The translations under genes were made by a program, and so were the position numbers. Below the pieces are notes generated by a model. It did no database searches, was not told the DNA's origin, and was given only the letters and a program-made list of their open reading frames with translations. Below, in pieces: positions 1 to 55,489 of a DNA stretch of 64,000 nt; position 1 is the stretch's first letter, and each line of letters opens with the position of its first letter. This stretch comes from Candidatus Goldiibacteriota bacterium (GTDB lineage Bacteria; Oederibacteriota; PGYV01; DYJU01): positions 7,790 to 71,789 of the forward strand of contig CALHNI010000006.1 of NCBI GenBank assembly GCA_938034975.1. Reading direction: 5' to 3'.

Positions 1-88
1 TTTAGGGGAAATATTTTATTTTTTTTTAATAATATTTTTCTTGTATTTTTTATACTGAAAATCTCAACCTTCTGATACGACTTTCAGA
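1..88 (+). repeat. Double-hairpin intergenic repeat, copy K (left part cut by window edge)
   Basis: Positions 30-88 align with the 3' part of copy I (aataatat..ctgaaaatc..N..gactttcaga). The imperfect hairpin at 55-88 contains the hydF stop codon (84-86). Confidence 0.6.
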
Positions 89-3975: not shown

Positions 3976-4014
3976 CTGATTTACCTCCTTTGGATAAGAT
4001 TTTAGGAATACTTT

Positions 4015-5781
4015 TTATTTATAATAAATTGGCCTTGGTTTATATTTAGTGTGTAACAGTTGATGTGATTTTTTACTCAATGGTTTACCTAAAAATTCTT
4101 CATATAATTTTTTTACCATAGGATTTTCATGAGAAAATCTTACTTGTTGTTGTTTGTCATCGTTGTAAATTCCATTGCTTCTTTGAATACGTAATTTATC
4201 ACTTATCTGATAAGGTTGTCCACCTCCTGCCACACAACCTCCGGGACAGGCCATAACTTCTATAAAATCATATGGTGGTTTTACTTTTTTTGTCTTTGAC
4301 TCTTTTATTTCATCCAGCACTTTTTTAATATTTCCTATACCATGAGCAATACAAACCTTTATTTCCTTTGAATCAACTTTTATATTTGCTTTTTTTATAC
4401 CGTCAAGTCCACGGATCTCGTTTAATTCTATTTTTTCTAAATTTTTTCCTGTAAATAAATAATACGCTGTCCTTAATGCTGCTTCCATAACTCCGCCTGT
4501 TGTTCCAAAAATTGTTCCTGCACCTGAGTAATTACCTAATATCTCATCTGGTTCTTCTTCCTCTAACCTTTCAAAATCTATACCACCCGAATATGCCATT
4601 CTTACAAGTTCGCGGGTTGTCAAAGAAACATCCACATCCTGAAAACCACTTGCAAACATTTCATCTGTTCTTGATATTTCATATTTTTTTGCTGTGCAAG
4701 GCATTATTGAGACCATAAATATTTTTCCCGGATCTATATTATTTTTTTGTGCAAAATAAGTTTTTGTTAAAACACCTGTAATTTGATGTGGTGATTTAAC
4801 TGTTGAAAAATGTTCAATTAGTTCAGGATAGTATTTTTCAAGATAATCAACCCAGCTTGGACAACAAGATGTAATCAAAGGTAATTTATTCCTGTTTAAT
4901 TGATATCTTTCATAAAATTCCGTAGCTTCTTCCATTATTGTTACATCTGCGCCAAAATTTGTATCAAAAACAGCTTTAAAACCTAATTTTCTGAGCAAAG
5001 CATAGATTTTTTTCGTTGTTATAGTTCCAGGTAGCAATCCAAATGATTCGCCAAATGCTACCCTTACAGCGGGTGCAATTTGAACAACAGGATAAAGATT
5101 TTCATCTCTTAAAGCATTCCATACTTTATCTGTTTCTTCATATTCAATTAATGCTCCAACCGGACAATGAGCTGAACACTGTCCGCATTTTATACAAGGA
5201 CTATCACTTAATAATATATCACCCGCAGGAGCAATTCTCATATCAAAACCACGATTTATAAATTCAAGTGCCCATACTTCCTGGATTTTTTGACATACAT
5301 CTACACATCTCCCGCATTTAATACATTTTTTTGCATCTACGACTATTGCTTTTGTTGATAAATCTTTTGATTTTTCAACAATTAGCGGTTTAAAAAATTT
5401 CTCTCTAATCCCAAATTCCTCTGCAAATCTTTGTAATTCGCAACTTCCATTTCTTAAACAAGTTAAACATTCATTTGGATGGTTAGATAAAATAAGTTCT
5501 ATTACATTTTTTCTTACTTCATGTAATTCTGCATCATGGGTAATTATTGACATATTTTCTTGTATTGGAGTAGTGCAGGAACGAACTAATTTTTTCATAC
5601 CTTCTACCTTAACAACACATATTCCACACGCACCAGTTGCATGTAAATCTTCATGTTTACATAAAGTTGGTATTTTTATACGCGCATGTTTTGCAGCATC
5701 TAATATTGTCAAATTTTCATCTACTTCAATTTCTTTTTTATTTATCAATATTTTTATTTTATTCTTTTCTTTTTCCGTCAT
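4015..5781 (-). CDS. hydA: [FeFe] hydrogenase catalytic subunit (group A, HydA/HndD type)
   Basis: H-cluster motifs TSCCPSW, MPCTAKKYE and EVMACPGGCVAGGGQP, plus N-terminal 2Fe-2S and 4Fe-4S Cys motifs. Confidence 0.95.
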   Translation of the reverse strand: MTEKEKNKIKILINKKEIEVDENLTILDAAKHARIKIPTLCKHEDLHATGACGICVVKVEGMKKLVRSCTTPIQENMSIITHDAELHEVRKNVIELILSNHPNECLTCLRNGSCELQRFAEEFGIREKFFKPLIVEKSKDLSTKAIVVDAKKCIKCGRCVDVCQKIQEVWALEFINRGFDMRIAPAGDILLSDSPCIKCGQCSAHCPVGALIEYEETDKVWNALRDENLYPVVQIAPAVRVAFGESFGLLPGTITTKKIYALLRKLGFKAVFDTNFGADVTIMEEATEFYERYQLNRNKLPLITSCCPSWVDYLEKYYPELIEHFSTVKSPHQITGVLTKTYFAQKNNIDPGKIFMVSIMPCTAKKYEISRTDEMFASGFQDVDVSLTTRELVRMAYSGGIDFERLEEEEPDEILGNYSGAGTIFGTTGGVMEAALRTAYYLFTGKNLEKIELNEIRGLDGIKKANIKVDSKEIKVCIAHGIGNIKKVLDEIKESKTKKVKPPYDFIEVMACPGGCVAGGGQPYQISDKLRIQRSNGIYNDDKQQQVRFSHENPMVKKLYEEFLGKPLSKKSHQLLHTKYKPRPIYYK

Positions 5782-5793
5782 GAATTTCTCCTT

Positions 5794-7947
5794 TTAATTT
5801 TTATTTATTGCACCAAATTTACAGGTATTATAACATTCCCCGCATTTAACACATTTTAATTGATCTATGACATGTGGTTTTCTTTTTTCTCCTGATATTG
5901 CAGTCACCGGACATCTTAGAGCACAAGCACCACAGCCTATACATTTATCAGGATTTATTTCATATATTATTAACTCTTTACACTTACCTGTTTTACATTT
6001 TCTATCTCTTATGTGTTCTATATATTCATATTCAAAATATTTAAGTGTGGATATTACAGGATTAGGAGAACTTTGCCCTAAGCCACATAAAGATGCTTTA
6101 TTCATGGCCAAAGAAATTCTTTTTAATCTTTCTATGTCATTTTCTTCTGCTTTACCACTGCTTATTGATTTTAATATCTCTAATAATTGTTTACCACCAA
6201 TTCTACATGGAGCGCATTTTCCACATGATTCATCAACTGTAAATTGAAGATAAAACTTGGCAACATCAACCATGCAATCATCTTCATCCATGACAATCAA
6301 TCCTCCTGATCCCATCATTGAGCCAATTTTTTGCAAACTTTCATACTCTATCGGATAATCAATAAAATCTTCAGAAATTACTCCGCCAGATGGTCCGCCA
6401 CTCTGAGCAGCTTTGAATCTCTTATTATTAAATATACCACCGCCAATATTATAAATTATTTCTTTCAATGTAGTTCCCATCGCAACTTCAATTAATCCTG
6501 GATTTTTAACCTTACCAGTTAATGCAAAAACTTTTGTTCCTTTTGATTGTTCTGTTCCAATTGATGAAAACCATTCATAGCCTTTATTAATAATAATTGG
6601 TATGTTTGCCCAAGTTTCAACATTATTTATAACAGTAGGTTTTCCCCATAAGCCTTCTTTGGAAGGGAATGGAGGTCTTGGTTTTGGCATACCTCTTTTC
6701 CCTTCTATAGATGCAATTAATGCTGTTTCTTCGCCACATACAAATGCGCCAGCGCCAAGTCTAATTTCAATATCAAATGAAAAATTGGTCCCGAGAATAT
6801 TTTCACCTAATAATCCAAGTTCTTTAGCTTTATTGATTGCCATCTCTAATCTTTTTATTGCAAGTGGATATTCTGCTCTTACATATATATAACCGTTTCT
6901 AGCTCCAACTGCATATGCACATATAGTCATTCCTTCTATAACACTATATGGATCTCCTTCTAAAATACTTCTGTCCATATATGCCCCAGGATCTCCTTCA
7001 TCGGCATTACATACTATGTATTTAATATCAGAATCTGTATTTTTTGTTATCTCCCATTTAATTCCAGTAGGGAAACCCGCTCCTCCCCTTCCTCTTAAAC
7101 CTGATTTTTTTATTTCTTCTATTACGGCTTCAGGCGTCATATTAAGTAAAACTTTTTCTAATGCCATATAACCATCTCTATTTATATAATCGTTAACATT
7201 TTCAGGATCAATATAACCACTATTTTTTAAAACAACCCTTATTTGATTGTATTGTTTATTATGTTCTCTTATTTTTATATTTGGATTATCTGAAAATAAT
7301 AAAAATTCATTAATTATTGTTTTTTTTATAAAATGTGTCTCAATAATATTTTCAATCTGGTGTTCGGTAAAGTTTGAATAAATTATATTTTCGGGCAATA
7401 TTTTAATTATTGGATTTTTATTTGACATGCCTATATATTTTGTTGAGTATATTTTAATTTTTTCTTGTAAATTTTTATTTGTTATTTTTTTGATAAAAGT
7501 ATTATATATATTTTTTTTCTTATCTGGTTCCCATACAAAAATATATTTAATGTCATTTTCAAATTCATTTTTATTATTTTTAGCAAATAAATCAATTGTG
7601 GGTAAAAAAATTACATAATCATCAATTATTGTCTTTTTCATTATATGCTCTGTAATTATTTTATAAACTATATCTTCATTTAAGTAACCATATCCTACTT
7701 CTGGTAACCCTTGTATTTTGATTATAAGATTTGGTTCGCAAAAGCATAATCCAAGGCAACCTGTTTTTTTTACAGTTATTATATCTTCTAAATCTCTCTC
7801 TGAAATTTCTTTTTTCAAAATTTCATAGATTCTGTCACCACCTGCTGCAATTCCACAGGTTCCCATACTAACCAATATCTCATTCTTATTTGACTTTTTT
7901 ATCAAATCTCTCATATTTTTCAATTCTTCATATTTTAATTTAGTCAT
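5794..7947 (-). CDS. hydB: NuoF-like flavoprotein subunit HydB/HndC with N-terminal extension
   Basis: [13 protein letters not shown] site, [10 protein letters not shown], two C-terminal CxxCxxCxxxC motifs. The N-terminus has a thioredoxin-like 2Fe-2S module followed by a Cys-poor duplicate. Confidence 0.9.
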
Positions 7948-8446
7948 TTTTTATTTCCTTTCCTTCTATTTTGGTATATTCACTTAGTATTTCAATCAAT
8001 TGGTCTTTTTTTAAATTTCCGTAAACTTTATTATTTATCACAATTGCTGGAGCTATTCCGCAACAACCAATGCATCTTACAATTTCTATCGAAAATATTC
8101 CATCTTCTGTTGTTGAATTTACCCCAATCCCTAAAATATTTTCTATTTCACCCAAAATATCTTCTCCCCCTTTTAAATAACAAGCTGTTCCCATACATAC
8201 TGATATTCTGTATTTACCGGGTTTGTTCAATTTAAAAATATGATAAAAAGTTATAATGCCATAAATTTTGGCAAGAGGTATATTTAATTTTCTTGACAAC
8301 TCCATTGCTATTTTTCTTGGGACATATCCATAAATTTCTTGAATTTTATGTAGTATCATTATTTCAAATCCTTTTTTGTTGCTGTTCTTTTCTATATATT
8401 CAATAATTTCATTTGGTAATTTTATTTCTTCTTTTTGCATTGTCAT
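7940..8446 (-). CDS. hydC: NuoE-like 2Fe-2S subunit HydC/HndA
   Basis: CMGTAC .. CIGCCG motifs. The start is placed at ATG 8446, preceded by AAAGGAG. The ORF-track GTG at 8476 overlaps that SD. Confidence 0.85.
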
Positions 8447-8487
8447 AATTATAATCTCCTTTGTGATTTTTTTCACTTTTCTTTAGA

Positions 8488-8516
8488 TTTATAATATATT
8501 ATTTCAAAAATGTCAA
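8488..8516 (-). promoter_or_regulatory. sigma70-type promoter for hydCBA (TTGACA-N17-TATAAA)
   Basis: Minus-strand TTGACA at 8516-8511, 17-nt spacer, TATAAA at 8493-8488, about 35 nt upstream of the hydC ATG. Confidence 0.6.
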
Positions 8517-8529
8517 CTTAAAAATAATA

Positions 8530-8732
8530 CCGTAAAAATGCGTTTTTACAGAAAAACAAATTTTTTTTATTCATCTTATTTAATAATTTTTTATTTTTAT
8601 AATGCATTTATTTTATTCACCCGTTTTTAAAATTTAAAATAAAACTAAAGTGTTGTTTTGAATATGTTATTTTTTTAAATAATATATCATTTTTCCTCCT
8701 GAAAATCGCAATCTTTTAATGCGTTTTTCAGG
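8530..8732 (+). repeat. Double-hairpin intergenic repeat, copy A
   Basis: Collapsed 5' palindrome at 8530-8551, conserved core (ttatttaataattttttatttttataatgcat..attcaccc..), 3' hairpin at 8698-8732. Confidence 0.85.
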
Positions 8733-8746
8733 CAATTAAATTTTCA

Positions 8747-8775
8747 TTGACACAAATTATTTTTTTTTTTATAAT
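8747..8775 (+). promoter_or_regulatory. Consensus sigma70 promoter for rpmH operon (TTGACA-N17-TATAAT)
   Basis: TTGACA at 8747-8752, TATAAT at 8770-8775, 58 nt upstream of the rpmH ATG. Confidence 0.65.
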
Positions 8776-8833
8776 TTATTAAAATTTAAAATCTCAATAA
8801 CTAAAATTTCAATATTTTAAACCAGGAGAAAAA

Positions 8834-11862: not shown

Positions 11863-13236
11863 ATGAATTCAACCATAGTTGCTCCTGCCACTTATCCTGC
11901 TGAAAGTGCAATTGGAGTTATAAGAATATCAGGTCCTGAAACTTTTCCAGTATTAAAAAAAATCTTTAAATTTAAATTCTTTAAAAATAATTTTGATAAT
12001 ATAAAATCACATTCCGCTCATCTTGGTTTTATTAAAGACAAAGAAAATATTATTGACGAAGTTTTACTAATTGTATTTAAATCTCCTAAATCCTATACAG
12101 GAGAAGATATGGCAGAAATAAGCTGTCATGGCAATCCATTTATAATTAATAAAATTTTAGAACTCCTTATCAAAAATGGTTGTAAAATGGCAGAACACGG
12201 CGAATTTACAAAAAGGGCATTCTTAAATGGCAAAATTTCACTGTCAGAAGCAGAAGCAGTTGCAGACATGGTATCTTCAAAAAATGATATTTCATTAAAT
12301 CTCGCCTTAAAACAACTTTTAGGCGAAGAAAAAAATTTAATTTTAAATTTAAGAGAAAAAATTATCAATGTAATTTCTCTGATTGAAACAGACCTTGATT
12401 TTTCGGACAGTGTTGAAAATATAGAAAAAAACAAAATTAAAAATCTTTTAAATGATATTTTGGAAACGATAAACAAATTAATCCATTCTGCCGATAAAGG
12501 GATAATGTTAAAACAAGGTATAAAACTTGTCATAACCGGAAAACCAAATGTTGGCAAATCAAGTTTATTAAATTCTTTATTAAAAAAGGAAAAGGCAATT
12601 GTTACACATATTCCTGGTACCACACGTGATATAATAGAAGATACGGTTAATATAGAAGGGCTTCCATTTAAAATTTATGATACAGCCGGCATAAGAAAAG
12701 CAAAGGGATTAATTGAAAAAAAAGGCATTGAGAAAACTATCAAAACAATAAAAACTTCAGACCTTGTTCTGTTTTTAATAGACGGTTCAAGAAAATTAGA
12801 TAAAAATGATTTTAATATTTTCTCAGAAGTAAAAAGAAAAAATTTTATTATTGTAATAAATAAAAATGACCTGAAATTAAAATATACAGAAGAAAAAATT
12901 TCCGATATATTTAAAACAGAGAAAAACAGAATAGTAACAATTTCTGCTTTAAAAAACAAAGGCATAAAAAACTTAACAAAAATGATAAAAAATATTATAA
13001 TAAATAAAGATAATTTTATTTTATCTGGTGATATTGTTATTTCAAATTTAAGACATAAACTAGCTTTAAAAAATGCAGCACAATCATTAAAAAAAGCAAT
13101 TAAAAATTTAAATGCGTTTGAAGTTGCAATAATTGATATAAAAAATGCTATTAATTTCATAGATGGTATAATTGGCAAAATAACTGATGAACATATTCTT
13201 GATAGTATTTTTAAAAATTTTTGCATAGGAAAATGA
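11863..13236 (+). CDS. mnmE: tRNA modification GTPase MnmE
   Basis: GKPNVGKSSLLN, DTAG, NKND, C-terminal FCIGK. Confidence 0.93.
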   Translation: MNSTIVAPATYPAESAIGVIRISGPETFPVLKKIFKFKFFKNNFDNIKSHSAHLGFIKDKENIIDEVLLIVFKSPKSYTGEDMAEISCHGNPFIINKILELLIKNGCKMAEHGEFTKRAFLNGKISLSEAEAVADMVSSKNDISLNLALKQLLGEEKNLILNLREKIINVISLIETDLDFSDSVENIEKNKIKNLLNDILETINKLIHSADKGIMLKQGIKLVITGKPNVGKSSLLNSLLKKEKAIVTHIPGTTRDIIEDTVNIEGLPFKIYDTAGIRKAKGLIEKKGIEKTIKTIKTSDLVLFLIDGSRKLDKNDFNIFSEVKRKNFIIVINKNDLKLKYTEEKISDIFKTEKNRIVTISALKNKGIKNLTKMIKNIIINKDNFILSGDIVISNLRHKLALKNAAQSLKKAIKNLNAFEVAIIDIKNAINFIDGIIGKITDEHILDSIFKNFCIGK

Positions 13237-13237
13237 T

Positions 13238-13759
13238 ATGAAAAAAACATTGATAACAACATCGTTTTTTTTAATTGTAATCATCTTAATAATAATATTT
13301 AAAAATGAAGTTTCAAATGTTAAAAAAAAATATTCACTAATAAAAGCAGGTGACCAGGCAATAAATTTTACATTAGGTATTTATGATTCAAAAAATATAA
13401 CTTTAAATGACTTTATAGGCAAAACAAACATTATCCTTGCTTTTTTAAACGAAACACCTTTTTCCCAAAAAACAGAACTGATGCTTGAAAAATTTTATGA
13501 TGATTATTTAAAAAAAAGAAAAGATATTTTGCTTTTTTTCCTGAAAAAATCAGGAAGTTTTATCATCATAGAAGAAAAAACTGATTATACCAATTTAAAA
13601 TATAGAACTCTTTTTAAGAAAATTCCAGATGTTTATCATTTTAAAACTTTACCATCTATTTTATTTATAGACAGATATGGAATTATTAAAATTTTATATA
13701 ATGGCTATTCTCCGACATTAATACAGGACCTTATTAATCAACTGGTATTTATAAAATGA
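13238..13759 (+). CDS. Membrane-anchored thioredoxin-fold (TlpA/redoxin-like) protein lacking the CxxC motif
   Basis: N-terminal TM segment. The pattern F.L..........L.DF.GK..IL.F matches redoxins, but the CxxC position reads ETPFS. Confidence 0.5.
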   Translation: MKKTLITTSFFLIVIILIIIFKNEVSNVKKKYSLIKAGDQAINFTLGIYDSKNITLNDFIGKTNIILAFLNETPFSQKTELMLEKFYDDYLKKRKDILLFFLKKSGSFIIIEEKTDYTNLKYRTLFKKIPDVYHFKTLPSILFIDRYGIIKILYNGYSPTLIQDLINQLVFIK

Positions 13760-14109
13760 ATCTTAATTGGAAATATTTTTTTCTTCTTTTTTTATCTTTT
13801 TTAATTAGTTTTTTGGGTTTGTATTTATTAAATAATGCTTACTATAAAAAATTAGGCACTATTTCTGTTATTTCCGAAATTAATTTTTTAAAAGAAATGC
13901 CATTTCTTCTTAACAAACAAAAAATAAATACTCTTCCTATAGGACATGAAAATTTGATATTAAAAAATAATCCGTTATTTAATCTTAAAGCATCTGTAAA
14001 AGATTTCAACAATAAAAGTTCTATTTATGATGTTGATTTTATTTTAAATTATCAAGGAAAAGAACTTTTAAAATTTTCCTGTCTGATAGATGCAAGGTTG
14101 CGTAAATGA
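13756..14109 (+). CDS. Hypothetical N-terminally anchored protein
   Basis: Translationally coupled (4-nt overlap), single N-terminal hydrophobic helix, no recognisable motif. Confidence 0.5.
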   Translation: MNLNWKYFFLLFLSFLISFLGLYLLNNAYYKKLGTISVISEINFLKEMPFLLNKQKINTLPIGHENLILKNNPLFNLKASVKDFNNKSSIYDVDFILNYQGKELLKFSCLIDARLRK

Positions 14110-14597
14110 AAAAAATCCAGGTTTTATTTTTTTTATTTTTTGTTTTATTATTTATTATTCAGTATTTTTTTCTTATAAAAACACTTAAACATTTAAATTC
14201 TTTTATGCAATTTTTTTCTGTTTTTCAAAAAATAGAAAAAATCACTTCTTTTTCCTGTTCATTTGATGAAAATTTTGCTGATTTAACCAAAAATTCAAAA
14301 TGTGCAATTTTCAAAATACCTTCATTAAATGAAAAATTTTTTATTTTAAAAGATTTTTTTGATTATGTAGTTATTCTTTATCATAACGATTATCTTTTCT
14401 TTAATTTACAACCATCCAATTTAAGTATAAGAATCCCTAAATCTTTTTATATTAAAAATATACATAACTTCAATTTTAAATATTTAAATAATACCCTGGA
14501 ATTTTCCGCTTTAATAAATAATATTTATTATTCATGTGACCTTTCCATTGATACTCAATTTATCAGACTTCCTTTTTATGATAAAAGGTTTTTTTAA
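14106..14597 (+). CDS. Hypothetical N-terminally anchored protein
   Basis: 4-nt overlap with the upstream ORF, N-terminal hydrophobic helix. Confidence 0.5.
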   Translation: MKKIQVLFFLFFVLLFIIQYFFLIKTLKHLNSFMQFFSVFQKIEKITSFSCSFDENFADLTKNSKCAIFKIPSLNEKFFILKDFFDYVVILYHNDYLFFNLQPSNLSIRIPKSFYIKNIHNFNFKYLNNTLEFSALINNIYYSCDLSIDTQFIRLPFYDKRFF

Positions 14598-14921
14598 ATG
14601 AAAAGACTTTATATTATTATCTTTTTAATTATAATATCTAATAATTTTTCTGTTTTTATATATGGGCTCTGGGAAAATTATAAAGCAGATAAATACATTG
14701 AAAAAACCAAAATTAAATTTCTTGAAATTTCGGCTCTTACACTTACCAAACATATCTTAGACGATATTACTTTTAATGATGTTTTGACACAGGAATTTTT
14801 TTATAAAGGAAATAAAATTATTTTAATTATAAAAAAAATAAAAAAGGATTTAATTGCAGTAGATGTCAGTATAATAAGCAATAAAAAAAATTACTTTTCA
14901 TCATTTATAAGCAAATATTAA
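14598..14921 (+). CDS. Hypothetical N-terminally anchored protein
   Basis: Starts immediately after the previous stop codon, N-terminal hydrophobic helix. Confidence 0.5.
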   Translation: MKRLYIIIFLIIISNNFSVFIYGLWENYKADKYIEKTKIKFLEISALTLTKHILDDITFNDVLTQEFFYKGNKIILIIKKIKKDLIAVDVSIISNKKNYFSSFISKY

Positions 14922-19081: not shown

Positions 19082-19209
19082 CCTCAGAAATATTTTATAA
19101 AAAAATATTATTCAAATAAATTTTTAAAATAACACTTGTGTTTTATTTTAAATTAAAATGATAAAAATATTTTATTCCGTAAAAATGCGTTTTCTAATAC
19201 ATTTTTACG
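19082..19209 (-). repeat. Double-hairpin intergenic repeat, copy B (truncated, inverted)
   Basis: Carries ccgtaaaaatgcg-ttttctaa-tacatttttacg at 19177-19209 and the core segment ttaaaataacacttgtgttttattttaaatt. It interrupts the usual rpmA-obg adjacency. Confidence 0.7.
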
Positions 19210-19340
19210 ATTTATTATAACAAAATTTCATTCCCTTAAAAATAAAAACGAATATTTTTGTTTTTAGTAGTATTTTCTTATATGGATTTGGTAAATATAA
19301 TTTTTTTAAAAAACCTGCTTGGGGATATTATCTTTTAAAT

Positions 19341-20040: not shown

Positions 20041-20064
20041 ACCTTCTTAATACACAGATTTTTA

Positions 20065-20092
20065 ATTTTACATATTTTATAATATATGTCAA
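20065..20092 (-). promoter_or_regulatory. sigma70-type promoter for tRNA-Lys-rplU-rpmA (TTGACA-N16-TAAAAT)
   Basis: Minus-strand TTGACA at 20092-20087 and TAAAAT at 20070-20065, about 25 nt upstream of the tRNA 5' end. Confidence 0.6.
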
Positions 20093-20108
20093 TTATTTTT
20101 TTTATAAA

Positions 20109-20316
20109 CGTAAAAACACATTATAAAATGCGTTTTTACGGAAATATAAAATATTTTTGGCTTTTTTGTTTAATAATTTTTTATTTTTATAGCACATTAC
20201 TTTGATTCACCTGTTTTTTAACTTTAAAAGCAAGTATACTCTTAAAATTCTTATTTGTTTATAAACCTTTTTATATTTTCTCTTTTTCCCTTAAAAACGC
20301 TAATGCGTTTTTCAGG
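20109..20316 (+). repeat. Double-hairpin intergenic repeat, copy C (same subfamily as F)
   Basis: 5' hairpin at 20109-20141, 3' hairpin at 20289-20316. Core is nearly identical to copy F (..atagcacattactttgattcacctgtttttta..). Confidence 0.85.
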
Positions 20317-20346
20317 TTATAATATTTAATTTATATAAAAATAATT

Positions 20347-32646: not shown

Positions 32647-32831
32647 CCTGAGAATCTCGTTATTAGAAAATTGTGATCTTCAGGATAAAAAAATAATTAA
32701 AATATTATTAAAAACTTATAAATTTTTAAAACAACACTTTTTTTTTATCAAAAAAAATTGTGAATAAAAATAACGCATTATAAATTCAAAAATTATTAAA
32801 TAAAAATGCTTTTTCTAACACGTTTTTACGG
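32647..32831 (-). repeat. Double-hairpin intergenic repeat, copy D (inverted orientation)
   Basis: cctgagaatctcg..gtgatcttcagg hairpin at 32647-32684. Core tgtgaataaaaataacgcattataaa. Ends ..ttagaaaa(rc)..cgtttttacgg at 32831. Confidence 0.8.
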
Positions 32832-35333: not shown

Positions 35334-35526
35334 CCGTAAAAACGCGTAAAAAAACGAGTTTTTATGGAAAAATAAAATATCTTTATCCTTTTTATTTAAT
35401 ATATTTTTATAATGCATTCTTTTTATTCACCAGTTTTTCTATTTAAATAAAATATAAGTATTATTTTAATTTGTTTAATAATATTTTTTTTCTGAAAAGT
35501 AAATATTTTCTATTGCACTTTTCAGG
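35334..35526 (+). repeat. Double-hairpin intergenic repeat, copy E
   Basis: 5' hairpin ccgtaaaaacgcg-taaaaaaa-cgagtttttatgg starts at 35334. The 3' hairpin ends at 35526, 1 nt from the stop codon of the upstream TPR gene. Confidence 0.85.
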
Positions 35527-35527
35527 A

Positions 35528-37714
35528 TTATATATAAGAAACCCTGTCAGTTGTTTTCTTTTTATCTTCTTTAATTTCTTCTTTTCCGTTGCCTTTTAAT
35601 TTTTTAAGTTCATCTAATTTAGCTTTTGCTTCTATATTATCTGCATCTTCAGAAATTATCTTATTAAGTATTTGTTCGGCTTCATAAAATAATCCCTGTT
35701 TCATAAATATTTCTGCTGATATAACAGTTGAAAAAATTACTTTTATATTTTTTTCTTCTGATTTTACTTCCTGTTTTTTCCTTTCTTCTTCCTGCTTTTT
35801 CTTTTCCTCTTCCTGTTTTTTCTTTTCCTCTTCCTGCTTTTTCCTTTCCTCTTCCTGCTTTTTCTTTTCTTCTTCCTGTTTTTTCCTTTCCTCTTCCTGT
35901 TTTTTCTTTTCTTCTTCCTGCTTTTTTCTTTCCTCTTCCTGTTTTTTCTTTTCCTCTTCCTGTTGTTTCTTTACCTGAGAATCCACAGATGAAATCCCTG
36001 CATATTGAGAATAAACTTTATTAAGTTTTGTTTTTATTGATTCATTTAAAGGTTCTATTGCAAGGGCTTTTTGATACATTTCTATTGCCTGTTCAAAATC
36101 TCCTGTTTTTACAAAACCCTCTGCCATAGCAATTAATGCAGGAACATCTTCCTGAACATCTGATTGAGAAACAGGAGCAGATGATATTACTGTTTCTTTT
36201 ATTTCAACTGGGCTTTCCAATATTATTTTGTCATGTGGTAAATCAGGTAATTTGAATTCTTCTGTTTTAAAAGGTTCATCTTTTATAGTTTGATGTTTTT
36301 TAGCATCAAAAATATTATCCTGAATTTGTGGTAATTTTACTGATTCAATTTTTTCTGGTTTTATTTTAATATCTTTTTTTAATTCAAAAACTTGCTTTTC
36401 TTTTACTGGTTCTGCTTTTGATTCTATAGTAAGTTTTTTAGCCCTTTCTACTATCTTGGGATGAGCGGGTTCCAATTCTTCTGCCATTTTTAAAAATTCG
36501 CGTTCTTTATTTTCCATCTTTTCTTTACTATAAATTTCTGATATTTTTATATAAACATCCGCTGCCTGTCTTTTTTTATTTTGCAAAGCCAAAACCTCTG
36601 CAAGTTTTTGTAAAATATCAATATTTTCCGGTTCTTTGCTTAAAATTTTATTTAAAATGTATTCTGCTTTGTCAAATTCTTTCTTTTTTGAATAAATATT
36701 TACAGCAACCATAAATTTGGCATTTGCTTCTTTTATTAATCCTTTTTGAAGATATATATCACCTAAAAGTTCCTGGGCTTCAGTATTCTCTTCATCTAAT
36801 TTAACGACTTTTGTTAAAATAGATATTGCCTGGTCTAACTGTCCTTTTTCTTTATTTATTTTGGCGGATAAGAGCAAACCCTCTGTATGATTTGCTTTAA
36901 ATTTTATTAAAACATCCAATTCTTTTTTGGCTTCATCAAATTCCTTTTTTACAAAAAGCACAGCTCCTTTAAAAAAATGAGCCTCTATACTTTTGGCTTC
37001 AATTGCTTTCTGGGCAAAAAAATCTACCTTTTCTATGTTTTTTTTAGCCCAGTAATACTCACATAAAAAAATATATTCCCGTTTTGTATCAGATTCACGT
37101 CCTTCTCTTTCATAAACTTCTGCGATTTTTTCTCTCATTTCAATATTGTCTGGTTGCAGTTCAATAATCTTCTGATAAACAGGAAGTGCTTTTTTATAAA
37201 TTCTGTTTTTATGATATATTTCTGCAACCTTATATAAAAACTTTAATGCCTCTTCTTTCATTCCTTTTTCCGCATATAATTCACCAATTTTCTGATACGT
37301 ATCAAAACTATCCGGATTTATTTGCAATATTTCTTTATATACATCAATTGCTTTATCAATTTCACCGTTTTCTATGAATTTTTCAGCTTCTGCATTTTTC
37401 TTTATCAGTATCTGCTTTTTTCTGTCTGCTTCAGGTAATTTATTAGAATCCAGTTTTGCAATTTTTTTGTAAATGATATTTGCTTTATCAGAAAGTCCCT
37501 GTTTGATATATGCTTCTGCTGTTAAAATATATGACTGATATGCAAGTGCATCTTCTCCTTTTTTGGCATATACATCACCAAGCATATTATGTATGTTATA
37601 ATCAGTAGGGTCCAGTATTATTAATTTTTTGTATTCCATAATTGCTTTATCCCATTTCCCTTCCTGCGTATAAATCATTGCCATTTTAAGAATGTCTTTT
37701 TTATTTTCAGCCAT
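35528..37714 (-). CDS. TPR protein with internal charged heptad (KKKQEEE)n tract
   Basis: N-terminal and C-terminal TPR units, about 10 heptads of [KR]KKQEEE. Sits upstream of the ExeA-like ATPase (MshN/MshM-like pairing). Confidence 0.8.
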   Translation of the reverse strand: MAENKKDILKMAMIYTQEGKWDKAIMEYKKLIILDPTDYNIHNMLGDVYAKKGEDALAYQSYILTAEAYIKQGLSDKANIIYKKIAKLDSNKLPEADRKKQILIKKNAEAEKFIENGEIDKAIDVYKEILQINPDSFDTYQKIGELYAEKGMKEEALKFLYKVAEIYHKNRIYKKALPVYQKIIELQPDNIEMREKIAEVYEREGRESDTKREYIFLCEYYWAKKNIEKVDFFAQKAIEAKSIEAHFFKGAVLFVKKEFDEAKKELDVLIKFKANHTEGLLLSAKINKEKGQLDQAISILTKVVKLDEENTEAQELLGDIYLQKGLIKEANAKFMVAVNIYSKKKEFDKAEYILNKILSKEPENIDILQKLAEVLALQNKKRQAADVYIKISEIYSKEKMENKEREFLKMAEELEPAHPKIVERAKKLTIESKAEPVKEKQVFELKKDIKIKPEKIESVKLPQIQDNIFDAKKHQTIKDEPFKTEEFKLPDLPHDKIILESPVEIKETVISSAPVSQSDVQEDVPALIAMAEGFVKTGDFEQAIEMYQKALAIEPLNESIKTKLNKVYSQYAGISSVDSQVKKQQEEEKKKQEEERKKQEEEKKKQEEERKKQEEEKKKQEEERKKQEEEKKKQEEEKKKQEEERKKQEVKSEEKNIKVIFSTVISAEIFMKQGLFYEAEQILNKIISEDADNIEAKAKLDELKKLKGNGKEEIKEDKKKTTDRVSYI
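35768..35971. repeat. 21-bp tandem repeat (~10 units) encoding [KR]KKQEEE heptads
   Basis: Plus-strand unit cttcctg(c/t)tttttc(c/t)tttc(c/t)t is repeated head to tail. Confidence 0.85.
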
Positions 37715-37797
37715 AATTCAAAATACCTTTCAAAATATTTACATATTTTAAATTAATTATAATATACATCCCTGAAAATCGCAATAGTGAATTACAT

Positions 37798-38029
37798 CCA
37801 TAAAAACGCGTTAGAAAATTCGTTTTTACTGGAATATAAAATATTTTTATCTTTTTTTTGTTTAATAATTTTTTATTTTTATAGCACATTACTTTAATTC
37901 ACCTGTTTTTTAATTTTAAAAACAAGGACACTCTTAAAATTCTTATTTGTTTTATTTGTTTATAAACCTTTTTTATATTTTCTCTTTTCTTCTGGAAATC
38001 GCATTTATTGAAAGATTGCGATTTTCAGA
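37798..38029 (+). repeat. Double-hairpin intergenic repeat, copy F (preceded by an extra half hairpin at 37771-37785)
   Basis: 5' hairpin at 37798-37832, core nearly identical to copy C, 3' hairpin tctggaaatcgca..tgcgattttcaga at 37991-38029. Confidence 0.85.
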
Positions 38030-38170
38030 AGAAAAAATACAAAAATAATATATTATTTAAAAAAATAAAATATTTAAAACAATACTTGAACTTTATTTTA
38101 AATTAAAAAACAGGTGAATAAAAGAATACATTATAAAAATAAAAATTTATTAAATAAAAATATTTTTAGT
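38030..38170 (-). repeat. Double-hairpin repeat, partial inverted copy F2
   Basis: The core is in reverse orientation (..aaaacaatacttgaactttattttaaattaaaaaacaggtgaataaaagaatacattataaaaataaaaatttattaaataa) and shares the 37991-38029 hairpin with F. It lacks the CCGTAAAAACGC hairpin. Confidence 0.7.
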
Positions 38171-38184
38171 TTTATAAATTTTTG

Positions 38185-39236: not shown

Positions 39237-39387
39237 CTGAAAATTGCAACAGGGTATTGCAATCTTCAGGATAAAAAAATATTTAAAACAACACTTGTGA
39301 TTTTATCTTAAATAAAAAATGGTGAATAAAAATAATAAAAACATTTTACTTTTCCGTAAAAACGCGTTTCTTATGCGTTTTTACCGG
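39237..39387 (-). repeat. Double-hairpin intergenic repeat, copy G (short, inverted)
   Basis: ctgaaaattgcaa..ttgcaatcttcagg at 39237-39270, core ..acacttgtgattttatcttaaataaaaaatggtgaataaaa, and ccgtaaaaacgcg-tttcttat-gcgtttttaccgg at 39354-39387. Confidence 0.8.
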
Positions 39388-39401: not shown

Positions 39402-39430
39402 TTTACTTAAATTTTATTAGATGATAAAAT
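39402..39430 (+). promoter_or_regulatory. sigma70-type promoter (TTTACT-N17-TAAAAT) for the O-antigen-ligase-like gene
   Basis: TTTACT at 39402-39407 and TAAAAT at 39425-39430, 15 nt from repeat G. Confidence 0.45.
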
Positions 39431-50984: not shown

Positions 50985-51010
50985 AATTTTTCTCCTAAAA
51001 AATTTGCATT

Positions 51011-51039
51011 ATTTTATAATAGCATAAATTTAAGGTCAA
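51011..51039 (-). promoter_or_regulatory. sigma70-type promoter for the gcv operon (TTGACC-N17-TAAAAT)
   Basis: Minus-strand TTGACC at 51039-51034 and TAAAAT at 51016-51011, 13 nt from repeat H. Confidence 0.6.
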
Positions 51040-51052
51040 GGAAAAATTACTA

Positions 51053-51228
51053 CCCTAAAAACGCGTTTTTACGGAAAAACAAAATTTTTTTATTATTTTT
51101 ATTTAATTTTAAAATGCATTACTTTTATTCACTAGTTTTTTTAATTTAAAATAAAACATGTGGGTTGTTTTAAATTTTTTTGTTTAATATTATTTTAAAT
51201 TACAATTTTCAATTGCACAGTTTTCAGG
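51053..51228 (+). repeat. Double-hairpin intergenic repeat, copy H
   Basis: Collapsed 22-bp palindrome ccctaaaaacgcgtttttacgg at 51053-51074, conserved core, degenerate 3' hairpin ending ..gttttcagg at 51228. Confidence 0.8.
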
Positions 51229-51307
51229 TATAATTTTAATTTTAAAAAATGTATAATAGATTTTTAAAATTCAATTATACTACAAAGAAGTGCCAATATT
51301 ATAATAA

Positions 51308-51393
51308 GTGTCGCCGCCATATTTTTTAGGCGTGAGCCATTTTCATGGCAAATGATATAAGGGGGTATATCTAAGAAAAGTAGGCGGCGACAT
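51308..51393 (-). ncRNA. Candidate structured small RNA (unclassified)
   Basis: 11-bp GC-rich closing stem (GTGTCGCCGCC / GGCGGCGACAT) encloses two hairpins. On the minus strand these are GAUAUA-[CCCCCU]-UAUAUC and GCCAU-[GAAA]-AUGGC (a GNRA loop). It is a GC island in AT-rich DNA. Confidence 0.35.
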
Positions 51394-51444
51394 CTATGTC
51401 ATTTTTTTTGTCAATTATCATATATTTTTTTAAATATCATTTTA

Positions 51445-51473
51445 ATTTTAAAATATAATTTAAATTTTGTCAA
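51445..51473 (-). promoter_or_regulatory. Orphan near-consensus sigma70 promoter (TTGACA-N17-TAAAAT) pointing at the structured element
   Basis: Minus-strand TTGACA at 51473-51468 and TAAAAT at 51450-51445. The predicted start lies about 45 nt upstream of the stem at 51393. Confidence 0.45.
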
Positions 51474-51757
51474 ATGTTTTTTAATATGAAAATATTTTCC
51501 ATAAATTGGGTTTTATTTTGCCTTTATTTAGTAAAATAAAATTGAACATTTATTGTCATAATTGTTTTTACGTAAAAATTTACTATGTGTCATTTGAATG
51601 GTAATTTATTTATTTTATGGATTTTTATTAGTATTAGTTTTTATAAAAATATAAAAAACTATTTAGAAAATGCGTTTTTATGGATAAAACATAAGTATTT
51701 TTTTAAAATTTTAATTTGTATAATTAATATATTTCATTCTTAATTTTTCAAAAAAAT

Positions 51758-52600: not shown

Positions 52601-55357
52601 TTATTTTATCACAACTATTTTTGTAAAATATTTTTCATCATCTACTTTCAATAATCCGTAATATACACCGCTTAAAACTTCTCTGCCCGAATCATTTTTT
52701 CCATCCCACATATACTTATATAACATTCCGCCTGTTTGATCTTCTCTGCGTAATATTTCTTTTACTTTTCTTCCTATAATATCGTAAATAATAAGAGACA
52801 CTTTAGAATTTTCTGGCAAATAATATTGAATTGTTGTTCCACCAGAATATGGCGAAAAAGGATTCGGAAAATTATAAAAACTTGATTTTATATCTCTTTT
52901 TACAATATTTATAATATCTGAAACATAAGGAAACTTATTATCTTTTGATTCAATATATACAATTGCACCATTTAATTTTTGTAAAACTATATCAAGTGAT
53001 TTTTCTATTGATATATTAAAAGTTCCTTCCTGGGCATTATCTCTTATGTCAATATAAAATTTAAAAGTTTTTTCTTCATTAAAATTAATAATACTGTTTA
53101 TCGGGCAATAAATTGTTTTTGAATTATTCCATTGTGTTTCACTTAATATATTTGGCCCTTCTCTGATAATAACTTTTTCAATTTTCAAATTATAATCATC
53201 ACTTATAGTTAATGTTACTCCTTCTGCATTATAAAGTGGTCCACCGCCATTTGGATTTTCTATTTTAAGGTCAATGACATTTATATTTTTTGCACCGGCA
53301 CTGATTGTATCAAAATCGTATTTAATATAATCTGTTTTGGCTGAGTTTCCATAAGCAGTAACTGTTACAGGAACCACAACCGAAGCAGTTGAAAGAATAT
53401 TATACCTGTCAATTGCATTTAATTCATATACTCCTGGTCTTAATATTCTTATATAAAAAATCTGTGTCCCTGATATCAAATTTTTATCTAAATCATAAAT
53501 AACATCTATTGACGGTGTTGCTTCTATGCCAATTTTATTTGTTGCAGGTGTATAATCCTGCCAGGTTATTTCATCAACACAACGAACATAAAGTGGTATT
53601 ATCTGCCCTGCTTCCTGTGGAACAGGTGTCCCTATAAAGCCAGGATACGCATAAATTGGGGTTTGCCCTGGCGCTAATAAAATTAAACTTATCAATGGTG
53701 TGTTTGTAGGGGTTATTGTCTGGGTTACTGTCTGGGTTATTGTTGGCGTTATTGTTGATGTTATTGTAAAAGTAATTGATGGTGTAATAGTTGCAGTTAT
53801 TGTCAGAGTTGATGTTTGCGTTATTGTTGCTGTTATTGTATTAGTTGCTGTCTGTGTGATTGTCTGGGTTATTGTATTTGTTACCGTATTTGTAACTGTC
53901 TGGGTAATTGTCGGTGTTATTGTCTGCGTTATTGTCCGGGTTATGGTTTGCGTTGTTGTTTCTGTTGCTGTTTGCGTCACGGTTTGCGTAATTGTCTGTG
54001 TTTTGGTTAGAGTTATTGTTTGTGTTATCGTTACAGTTATAGTTTCAGTTATCGTCTTTGTTACTGTCTCAGTTATTGTTTGTGTTGCTGTCTGTGTTAT
54101 CGTTTGTGTTATTGTATTGGTTATTGTCGGTGTTACCGTTGCAGTTATTGTTTCTGTTATTGTCTGTGTTACTGTTTGCGTTATTGTTTCTGTTATTGTC
54201 TGCGTTGCTGTCTGCGTTATGGTTTGCGTTGCTGTTTGAGTTATCGTCTGTGTTATCGTTGCAGTTATAGTTTCAGTTATTGTTGTAGTTGTTGTTTGCG
54301 TTATTGTTAATGTAATTGATGATGTTATTGTTGCTGTTATGCTTGGAGTAACTGTCGGTGTTATTATTATAACTATCTGTGTATATCCATTTGGTGTTGT
54401 TATCTTTGCATCTGTTAAATCATTTAAATAACTTCTATAATGCTTCTCTCCTATATCTCCTATTGCATTAAATTTTATTATGTCAAAATTTGTCCCTGAA
54501 AATACATTCCATGGATTATAAATAACTTCTATCCTATCGCTAACCTGGTTTATTCCTGTCCCTAAATTTGTGCTTAATCCACCGGTTATTACTACCCCTG
54601 ATGGTATATTTATTATTACCTTTGTTATGTCTCCTATCCCTGCTGCTGTTACTCTATATGTATATTGCTTTTCTTCTCCACTTACAGCACTTACAGGCTC
54701 TATATACCCATTTGCTGCTGGCGTATATGTATTTGTTACTGTTATCGTTGCTGTTATGGTCTGTGTTATTGTTTCTGTTATTGTTTGCGTTATTGTTTGA
54801 GTTATTGTTTGCGTTGCTGTCTGCGTTATGGTTTGTGTTATTGTATTGGTTATTGTCAGTGTTACCGTTGTAGTTATTGTTTCTGTTATAGTCTGTGTTA
54901 CTGTCTCAGTTATTGTTTGCGTTGCTGTCTGCGTCACGGTCTGAGTAATTGTCTGTGTTACTGTCAGCGTTACTGTTTGCGTTATAGTTGCAGTTATGGT
55001 ATCAGTCATCGTCTTAGTTGCTGTCTGCGTTGCTGTTTCTGTTATAGTTTGTGTTATTGTCTCTGTTATTGTATTAGTTATAGTGCCTGTAAATGTCTCA
55101 GAAATAGTTTCTGTTATTGTTGTGGTAATGGTCGGAGTTATTGTCTGCGTTATCGTTTCTGTTTCTGTTTCTGTCTCTGTTATTGTTTGCGTTGCCGTGT
55201 CAGTTATTGCATACAAATTTTCTATGGCTATAAATCCTAAAAAAAATAAAAAAACACTTATTTTTATCCGTAAAAATGCATTAGAAAACGCGTTTTTAGG
55301 GAAAAACAAAATTTTTTTATTGTTTTTATTTAATAAATTTTTATTTTTATAAAGCAT
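52601..55357 (-). CDS. Secreted Thr-rich (T-x-T-Q/E)n repeat protein with Ig-like domains and a C-terminal FlgD-Ig/T9SS-type sorting-like domain
   Basis: Signal-peptide h-region ISVFLFFLGFIAI. Two TxTx tracts at aa 51-211 and 332-553. C-terminus ..FYNFPNPFSP..GVYYGLLKVDD..KIVVIK. Start uncertain: ATG 55357 or in-frame TTG 55309, both inside repeat I. Confidence 0.8.
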   Translation of the reverse strand: MLYKNKNLLNKNNKKILFFPKNAFSNAFLRIKISVFLFFLGFIAIENLYAITDTATQTITETETETETITQTITPTITTTITETISETFTGTITNTITETITQTITETATQTATKTMTDTITATITQTVTLTVTQTITQTVTQTATQTITETVTQTITETITTTVTLTITNTITQTITQTATQTITQTITQTITETITQTITATITVTNTYTPAANGYIEPVSAVSGEEKQYTYRVTAAGIGDITKVIINIPSGVVITGGLSTNLGTGINQVSDRIEVIYNPWNVFSGTNFDIIKFNAIGDIGEKHYRSYLNDLTDAKITTPNGYTQIVIIITPTVTPSITATITSSITLTITQTTTTTITETITATITQTITQTATQTITQTATQTITETITQTVTQTITETITATVTPTITNTITQTITQTATQTITETVTKTITETITVTITQTITLTKTQTITQTVTQTATETTTQTITRTITQTITPTITQTVTNTVTNTITQTITQTATNTITATITQTSTLTITATITPSITFTITSTITPTITQTVTQTITPTNTPLISLILLAPGQTPIYAYPGFIGTPVPQEAGQIIPLYVRCVDEITWQDYTPATNKIGIEATPSIDVIYDLDKNLISGTQIFYIRILRPGVYELNAIDRYNILSTASVVVPVTVTAYGNSAKTDYIKYDFDTISAGAKNINVIDLKIENPNGGGPLYNAEGVTLTISDDYNLKIEKVIIREGPNILSETQWNNSKTIYCPINSIINFNEEKTFKFYIDIRDNAQEGTFNISIEKSLDIVLQKLNGAIVYIESKDNKFPYVSDIINIVKRDIKSSFYNFPNPFSPYSGGTTIQYYLPENSKVSLIIYDIIGRKVKEILRREDQTGGMLYKYMWDGKNDSGREVLSGVYYGLLKVDDEKYFTKIVVIK
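53699..54364. repeat. 12-nt-periodic coding repeat tract 2 ((ACN ATN ACN CAR)n type)
   Basis: Encodes aa 332-553 of the Thr-rich protein and generates long spurious ORFs in other frames. Confidence 0.85.
54725..55207. repeat. 12-nt-periodic coding repeat tract 1
   Basis: Encodes aa 51-211 of the Thr-rich protein. Confidence 0.85.
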
Positions 55358-55489
55358 TACTTTTATTCACCCGTTTTTTTTATTTAAAATAAAGAACAAG
55401 TATTGTTTTAAATATTTATTGTTTTCAATAATATATTTTTTGTTTTTTTCACCTGAAAATCGCAATCTTTAAATAATACGATTTTCAGA
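55268..55489 (+). repeat. Double-hairpin intergenic repeat, copy I
   Basis: 5' hairpin ccgtaaaaatgca-ttagaaaa-cgcgtttttaggg at 55268-55301, conserved core, 3' hairpin cctgaaaatcgcaat..acgattttcaga at 55452-55489. Confidence 0.85.

Follow-up and report, generated by a model that had tools for sequence, protein, structure and literature searches.

We analyzed a 64,000-nucleotide stretch of DNA (the window; 27.7% G+C) from a Candidatus Goldiibacteriota genome; among its named relatives, MAGs labelled Candidatus Goldbacteria/Goldiibacteriota come closest (HydC 80%). The window encodes a hydGEF-hydABC-type hydrogenase, rpmH-rnpA-yidD-yidC-jag-mnmE, rplU-rpmA-obg, a gcvT operon, tmRNA/smpB and xerC/topA, among other genes. 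Downstream of mnmE, four consecutive plus-strand ORFs (13238-14921; 173, 117, 163 and 107 aa) have no Pfam match, and a TTAACA-17-TATAAT site lies within the end of mnmE itself (12973-13001). Scattered between these genes is a short intergenic repeat. The same strain is present in Logan sample ERR9287890, in which contigs L001 and L194 end inside the repeat.

Using nhmmer with one copy (copy A) as the query together with a repeat finder, we defined the repeat unit as 150-230 nt with a hairpin at each end, H1 and H2. The nhmmer query identified nine places in the window, and our catalogue holds 11 (K, A, B, C, D, E, F1/F2, G, H, a solo hairpin and J), giving a density of ~1 copy per 6 kb and occupying roughly 3% of the window. 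H1 reads CCGTAAAAACGC, a loop of 0-12 nt, then GCGTTTTTACGG. Its long form carries a ATTAGAAAA-type loop, copies A and H have a 22-nt short form, and the 12-nt difference between the forms is in frame. H2, at the other end, is related to H1 and reads CCTGAAAATCGCA, a loop, then TGCGATTTTCAGG. Both stems are built on A5/T5 runs, H1 starting with CCGT and H2 with CCTG, and loops range from 0 to 16 nt across copies. The outer arms CCGTAAAAACGC and GCGATTTTCAGG are inverse complements of one another at 9/12 positions, and each also pairs locally with its own partner. Between the hairpins lies an AT-rich body with a conserved stretch of ~130 nt, in which TATAATGCATTACTTTTATTCACCnGTTTTT is the best conserved block. 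Allowing up to two mismatches, we counted 24 occurrences of arm GCGTTTTTACGG (2.5 expected) and 14 of arm TGCGATTTTCAGG (1.2 expected), and all of the genuine occurrences are intergenic.

The hairpins fold better than shuffled sequences in 12 of 16 cases (z about -3.5 to -6.7); those that do not stand out are the short-form H1 of copies A (z -2.9) and H (z -0.06) and both hairpins of copy D. H2 shows compensatory changes at three pairs (UA/AU/GC at one position, CG/UA at another), paired cells make up 88%, and the covariation score, 0.234 vs 0.147, was reached by 0/500 shuffles. The body has no conserved structure, and Rfam, at both gathering and permissive thresholds, has no family for the repeat. 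We dropped a reading of the hairpins as terminators: T-runs precede them and A-runs come after, not the reverse, and because a T-run follows neither hairpin they are not intrinsic terminators. One "H2-like" hairpin at 19236-19268 was removed from the family as the rpmA terminator, homologous to terminators in two relatives (L200 and L201).

The full-length copy A (8530-8732, plus strand) is wedged between two divergent promoters. Its H1 (8530-8551) is the short form CCGTAAAAATGCGTTTTTACAG, its core TTATTCACC lies at 8613-8621, and its H2 spans 8698-8732. On the H1 side, 13 nt separate the hairpin foot from the -35 of the hydC promoter (8516-8488, minus strand; TTGACA at 8516-8511, a 17-nt spacer and TATAAA at 8493-8488), which serves the gene for a NuoE-like hydrogenase subunit. 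On the H2 side, 14 nt separate it from the rpmH promoter (8747-8775, plus strand; TTGACA at 8747-8752, 17 nt and TATAAT at 8770-8775), which matches at 12/12 positions and ranks first in our scan. The original prediction described exactly these hexamers, about 14 bp from each side of the copy. It also placed copies C and H 16 and 13 bp from the -35 boxes of tRNA-Lys and gcvT, and this holds with a one-nucleotide correction for C. Copy C (20108-20316, plus strand) turns H1 toward the tRNA-Lys promoter (TTGACA-16-TAAAAT, 20092-20065, minus strand) across a gap of 15 nt, and its H2 end is 30 nt from the zupT stop codon. Copy H (51053-51228, plus strand), whose H1 is the 22-nt palindrome CCCTAAAAACGCGTTTTTACGG, is 13 nt from the gcvT promoter (TTGACC-17-TAAAAT, 51039-51011, minus strand).

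Two further copies lie beside candidate promoters. Composite F (37771-38180) consists of a stray half-H2 (37771-37786) followed by F1 (37797-38031, plus strand) and F2 (37989-38180, minus strand), which share one H2. The TPR-gene promoter at this locus (TTGCGA-17-TATAAT, 10/12, 37784-37756, minus strand) is 13 nt from F1, and its -35 TTGCGA falls within the half-H2. Copy G (39237-39387, minus strand) carries an internal deletion and lies between divergent genes. It had been described as bracketed, like copy A, by near-consensus -35 boxes; hexamers are indeed found there, at 39229-39224 (TTGAAC, minus strand, 7-nt gap) and 39402-39407 (TTTACT, plus strand, followed by TGaTAAAAT, 14-nt gap), but each matches the consensus at just 4/6 positions. 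They are the sole plausible promoters in the available 59 and 77 nt.

The remaining copies occupy other kinds of site. Copy K (1-88, plus strand) is cut by the window start, and its H2 (55-87) overlaps the hydF stop codon (84-86). Copy B (19095-19213, minus strand) is partial, retaining H1 and part of the body without H2; it starts 4 nt downstream of the conserved extended -10 of obg (TGTTATAAT, 19222-19214, minus strand), and thus lies in the obg leader (5' UTR). Copy D (32647-32831, minus strand) has degenerate hairpins, with H1 7 nt from the stop codon of a 255-aa gene and H2 85 nt from the tRNA-Gly promoter (32561-32533, a 12/12 match). Copy E (35334-35526, plus strand) lies between cistrons, with 1-2 nt between its H2 end and the TPR-gene stop codon and 49 nt between its H1 and the ATG of an ATPase gene. 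K, E and D all touch or almost touch stop codons. The full-length copy J (55268-55489, plus strand) overlies the start of a 918-aa ORF, which its antisense SD and ATG (55357) appear to open, and a TTGAAA-16-TATAAT promoter lies upstream of the whole copy (55636-55609, minus strand). A solo H1-like hairpin remnant is found at 51650-51684 (plus strand). A placement 7-15 bp upstream of a -35 is not general, with B in a 5' UTR, E between cistrons, J over an ORF start and D at a distance of 85 nt. By our own criteria the window contains 11 promoter sites matching at least 11/12 positions, and three of them (hydC, rpmH and tRNA-Lys) adjoin a copy. Separately, the 728-aa TPR gene contains ten tandem 21-nt units (35720-36013).

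We compared these loci with their counterparts in related genomes. In the window as in relative L195, the hydC TTGACA precedes the ATG by 70 nt; it is present also in L197, and a GTGA-N-TCAC palindrome near the hydC SD is common to the window and L197; where the window has the repeat, L195 and L197 have a TetR gene and an operator. L200, L201 and L202 have nearly the same tRNA-Lys promoter as the window, (A-tract)TTGACA-16-TAAAAT, A-tract included. The gcvT promoter, AATTTTTCCTTGACC...TAAAAT, is kept in L205, L206 and L207 together with ~10 nt upstream, and the homology reaches to within a few bases of the H1 of copy H. The obg promoter, TTTTTAAGGGA...TGnTATAAT, is common to L200, L201, L202 and the window. 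Upstream of hydC, tRNA-Lys, obg and gcvT the repeat is absent from the relatives, whose orthologous proteins are 78-95% identical. An nhmmer search of their hydC, tRNA-Lys and gcvT loci detected no repeat, and the H1, H2 and core motifs occur 0 times in 118 kb of relatives vs 15, 6 and 8 times in the window. A candidate diverged copy upstream of gcvT in L205, which BLAST aligned opposite copy H, was dropped when its score proved no better than shuffles. Kept in repeat-free relatives, the hydC, tRNA-Lys and gcvT promoters are ancestral host DNA; the repeat is an insertion beside them, and one that they do not need.

Several other features emerged from the same comparison. The operator that accompanies the TetR gene upstream of hydC in L195 and L197 reads TTATCTAACA..TGTTAGATAA, and the window has neither. 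Between the hydC -10 and the SD, the window (8461-8476), L195 (9966-9985) and L197 (about 820-835) share a Rex-box-like palindrome, TTGTGATTTTTTTCAC. Near the gcvT locus, a ~95-nt sequence (51309-51400, minus strand) is about 98% identical in L205 (856-945) and L206 (3835-3924), with diverging flanks. It has a promoter (TTGACA-17-TAAAAT, 51473-51445, minus strand) and folds into a 10-bp closing stem with two hairpins (z -5.6); in L205 one pair of the closing stem is G-C instead of C-G, a compensatory exchange. Rfam has no family for this sequence, which resembles a small RNA or leader not described before. The palindrome ATTTTTACGTAAAAAC (51564-51579), kept in L205 and L206, lies about 90 nt upstream of the promoter of this candidate RNA; it has the H1 half-sites in the opposite order and may be an operator.

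The comparison bears directly on the suggestion, made in the original prediction, of a cis function at promoters, in which the A5/T5 hairpin arms would act as an UP-like element, insulator, terminator or regulator docking site. The T5/A5 tract of the H1 arm does lie at about -54 to -58 of several promoters, compensatory changes preserve the hairpins, and both divergent promoter pairs of the window contain a copy. Against this, orthologous promoters are free of the element in at least five related genomes, its orientation is mixed, and its position ranges from about -50 (5-7 element ends) to +5, +120 and -120. The hairpins, lacking a following T-run, do not suit termination, and their 0-16 nt loops fit a hairpin better than a dimeric operator. 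Because other copies are placed elsewhere relative to promoters, in a leader, between cistrons or far off, a fixed cis role at promoters is not supported, and we regard an accessory function of this kind as very improbable.

The placement of these insertions has to be judged against the space available. The window has ~14 intergenic gaps of at least 40 nt, and a copy is present in 9/14. With the repeat removed, 51-184 nt of host DNA remain in eight of the nine occupied gaps and 562 nt in the ninth (50985-51757). The free DNA between constrained features, again with the repeat removed, is 21-46 nt at A, G and C, 93 nt at H and 92 nt at D; with just 21-46 nt free, any tolerated insertion at A, G or C ends near a -35. 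Both divergent gene pairs in the window hold a copy (A and G), and there the gaps are forced, because the -35 hexamers would be just 27 and 21 nt apart without the repeat. The gap sequence is the conserved A/T tract by the -35, probably at the position of a proximal UP subsite, and selection to keep this tract next to the -35 would set a lower bound on the gap.

The original prediction had proposed a comparison of these distances with random placement, which we ran within the window by simulating uniform insertion into free host DNA. A gap of 15 nt or less was found at six of seven promoter-facing ends, vs 3.3 expected (P=0.013), but the unforced loci C, H and D alone gave P=0.13. For the four best-supported gaps to span 2 nt or less (13-15 nt), P=2e-4, rising to 1e-3 when any insertion within 10 nt of the -35 is taken to be lethal, in a post hoc test with n=4. 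These numbers speak for targeted insertion, in which the machinery would prefer a site ~13-15 nt upstream of the -35 (around -50), either at the upstream edge of RNA polymerase at strong promoters or at the boundary of a bent A/T tract. Such targeting would provide a safe haven, as for retrotransposons aimed at Pol III genes; Ty3 and TRE elements follow this strategy. The gaps of 13, 14, 15 and 13 nt at the four best-supported promoters are joined by those of F1 (13 nt) and G (14 nt), three of the 11 strongest promoter-like sites adjoin a copy, and copy H lies close to its -35 despite ~80 nt of further space that seemed free. Yet the statistic was picked after seeing the data, with n of 4-7, the distances at A and G are forced, and the flanks of the copies share no common target motif. 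Copies B, D, E, J and K lie elsewhere (+5 from a -10, 85 nt off, between cistrons or at stop codons). We consider targeting unlikely to be the explanation. The clustering at 13-15 nt is the single feature that compaction alone does not account for, and leaves room for a targeting model. A strong preference for DNA upstream of promoters was half right: the repeat is an addition beside ancestral promoters, but with so few free gaps the strength of the preference does not follow, and from 64 kb of one genome insertion preference and survivorship cannot be separated.

The repeat also carries coding potential on its antisense strand. There, the core comprises AGGTGA, 9 nt and an ATG, from which a frame runs through H1 (MHYKNK.LLNK..K.ILFF.KNAF(SNAF)LR). 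In copy A this open frame (8518-8607, minus strand) is preceded by an SD-like GGGTGA, encodes MHYKNKKLLNKMNKKNLFFCKNAFLRYYF followed by a stop codon, and passes through H1 to end in host DNA. A profile of the peptide matched four further called ORFs on other public contigs (E 1e-8 to 2.5e-6), so the family extends beyond the window. The tails after FLR differ because the frame runs out into host DNA, and therefore there is no conserved protein. Two of the public proteins outside the window, P0363 and P0365, are called ORFs of 169-173 aa in which the repeat-derived peptide makes up residues 1-29 and the C-terminus may be part of a PiT-type phosphate transporter; each probably arose where a repeat landed within or beside a gene fragment.

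These frames raise the possibility that the repeat is a portable leader or small-ORF cassette, in which the SD AGGTGA and ATG would provide a small basic peptide, or an N-terminal extension and the start of the next gene. Copies A, C, E, J and G keep the frame unbroken, the 12-nt difference between H1 forms preserves it, and within the body conservation is highest at the SD core. In copy E the frame stops 7 nt before the ATPase gene ATG, and at copy J the 918-aa ORF has a single canonical in-frame start before its signal-peptide-like KISVFLFFLGFIAIENLYA, the element ATG. The antisense strand is directed at the start of the adjacent gene in 7/10 copies. A hairpin facing the gene start had been reported for 8 of 11 copies; a majority remains after this recount, but among tandem contexts the split is 5 vs 3 and not significant. 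Five of 10 copies, on the other hand, are frameshifted or without the ATG (indels of 2, 11 and 32 nt), the C-terminal tails vary, and the conservation of the peptide coincides with DNA conservation of the palindrome. A conserved promoter upstream of the frame is also absent: scanning the ORF strand of the copies, we found no promoter-like site of at least 9/12 at a conserved position, and with that scan empty we dropped an internal-promoter reading. We think a cassette function quite improbable. A small protein gene as the main reading was likewise dropped, on the frameshifts and missing ATGs in half of the copies and the variable tails. The 918-aa ORF itself (52601-55357, minus strand) contains ~60 tandem 12-nt units (53671-54400, Thr/Glu-rich) and has a weak T9SS-type C-terminal match.

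As to how the repeat spread, no transposase domain was found among the 40 ORFs scanned, which included all of the copy-flanking ORFs, and no RAYT or TnpA gene was seen among the window ORFs scanned. The two flanks of a copy have on average 5.4 nt in common, vs 4.6 nt for mismatched pairs. Copy H compared with L206 is compatible with a TA duplication, in DNA that is very AT-rich. Because no target-site duplication is demonstrable and no cognate transposase was seen, we infer mobility from the distribution of the repeat only. The flanks have A/T richness in common, without a shared target motif or conserved target tetranucleotide. One relative, L202 (GCA_020722985.1), carries a different, GC-richer intergenic repeat family of ~330 nt, with at least four copies in 18 kb (3993-4280, 6954-7242, 8328-8540 and 13202-13490). 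Its sites include the rpmA-obg gap and the DNA upstream of the tRNA-Lys promoter, the intergenic regions of copies B and C, which suggests that these regions tolerate insertions. Comparing window spans 8447-8833 and 20041-20346 with L195, L197 and L200-L202, we also observed that gene order differs exactly at copies A (rpmH next to hydC) and C (zupT next to tRNA-Lys), and the repeats may be recombination breakpoints.

Broader DNA scans recovered no further copies among the matches listed. A genome-collection scan with the loose pattern GTTTTTABRGAAAWNYAAAWT returned at least 115 loci, all of them noise among the matches listed, and a metagenome scan with CATTNNTTTNATTCACNNGTTTTT returned 77 loci, none a family member. 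The 14 loci from a viral scan matched the pattern alone, plasmid and phage BLAST gave nothing for the repeat, and a literature search for its motifs found unrelated papers only, with one arm sequence there by chance.

We compared the repeat with known classes of bacterial intergenic repeats. Correia elements of Neisseria are bacterial MITEs (Delihas 2011, PMC3184786). Like them, our repeat is short, non-coding and dispersed between genes, often 5' of them, its ends may count as mutually inverted, and one end can donate promoter parts, as where an H2 arm supplies the -35 of the TPR-gene promoter. Correia elements also reach a similar density. The differences are that each terminus of our repeat is a self-contained hairpin, unlike the plain 26-bp terminal inverted repeat of Correia elements, and that neither strong outward promoters nor an IHF site were found in the repeat in this analysis. 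In keeping with MITEs generally, it is shorter than ~400 bp, carries no transposase gene and is absent at orthologous sites in relatives.

The hairpins recall REP/BIME sequences and the PATEs of IS200/IS605, in that they are imperfect palindromes able to form single-strand hairpins, show compensatory changes, and occur at both ends or sometimes alone (51650-51684); the repeat is likewise extragenic and coincides with assembly breakpoints. A REP/BIME palindrome forms a stem-loop of 20-40 nt, as H1 and H2 do in most copies. PATEs are recognized by two subterminal hairpins, one near each end of the same strand, together with a conserved target of 4-5 nt lying 5' of the left end; our repeat has hairpins at both ends, and its flanks share just A/T richness. 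It differs from both groups in the conserved ~130-nt body between the hairpins. RAYT-associated REPs have a GTAG or CGTC tag and a G+C-rich stem (PMC3733652), and, by that criterion, our AT-rich stems without either tag differ from REP/BIME.

The Neisseria REP2 and Borrelia IR-A/IR-B repeats are intergenic sequences of 120-180 nt with two stem-loops and an RBS and ATG fused to downstream ORFs, and REP2 has its own promoter and no terminal inverted repeats (Delihas 2011, PMC3184786). Like REP2 and IR-A, our repeat lies directly upstream of genes, and gene callers annotate ORFs derived from it. In contrast to REP2, it has no conserved promoter, its hairpins are terminal, its frame is broken in half of the copies, and most genes beside it retain their own promoter and RBS. 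Insertion sequences can generate hybrid promoters with the -35 in the IS end. The 10/12 promoter at F, with TTGCGA from the element arm, resembles these at one locus only; at A (hydC), C and H the -35 is instead host DNA, by conservation in relatives. We conclude that the repeat is a new family within a known type of bacterial intergenic repeat, MITE/REP-like with hairpin termini.

We think it probable, though well short of certain, that the repeat is a lineage-specific, non-autonomous, (formerly) mobile MITE/REP-like element, most of whose placement is explained by a compact host genome and survivorship. A trans-acting enzyme recognizing the hairpin ends, presumably encoded outside the window, would have spread it. 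In a genome this compact, free intergenic DNA is found almost solely at operon starts, and nearly all of it is promoter-proximal for that reason. Insertions would survive only where they leave intact the -35 with the A/T tract on its upstream side, as well as the leader and the end of the neighboring gene. The expected outcome is copies a few to ~15 nt upstream of a pre-existing -35, or wedged between divergent promoters (A and G), with B, E and J tolerated within leaders or between cistrons. Secondary effects may have followed: an H2 arm would supply the -35 of the TPR-gene promoter, the SD and ATG of the element appear to start the 918-aa ORF, and copies would come to coincide with gene-order breaks relative to other genomes. 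We give a small chance to a more specific model in which the element, or its enzyme, recognizes the upstream edge of an occupied strong sigma-70 promoter and integrates ~13-15 nt upstream of the -35, and in which its SD and ATG can seize the translation start of a neighbor.

If the MITE/REP-like reading holds, a high-copy repeat explains assembly breaks in this lineage, as in L001 and L194, and also spurious small ORFs, extended start sites and gene-order differences at repeat sites. The comparison that underlies it yields comparatively validated promoters, those of hydC, tRNA-Lys, gcvT and obg, for an uncultured phylum. If the 13-15 nt spacing holds generally, it would make this one of the few bacterial mobile elements that target promoter edges.
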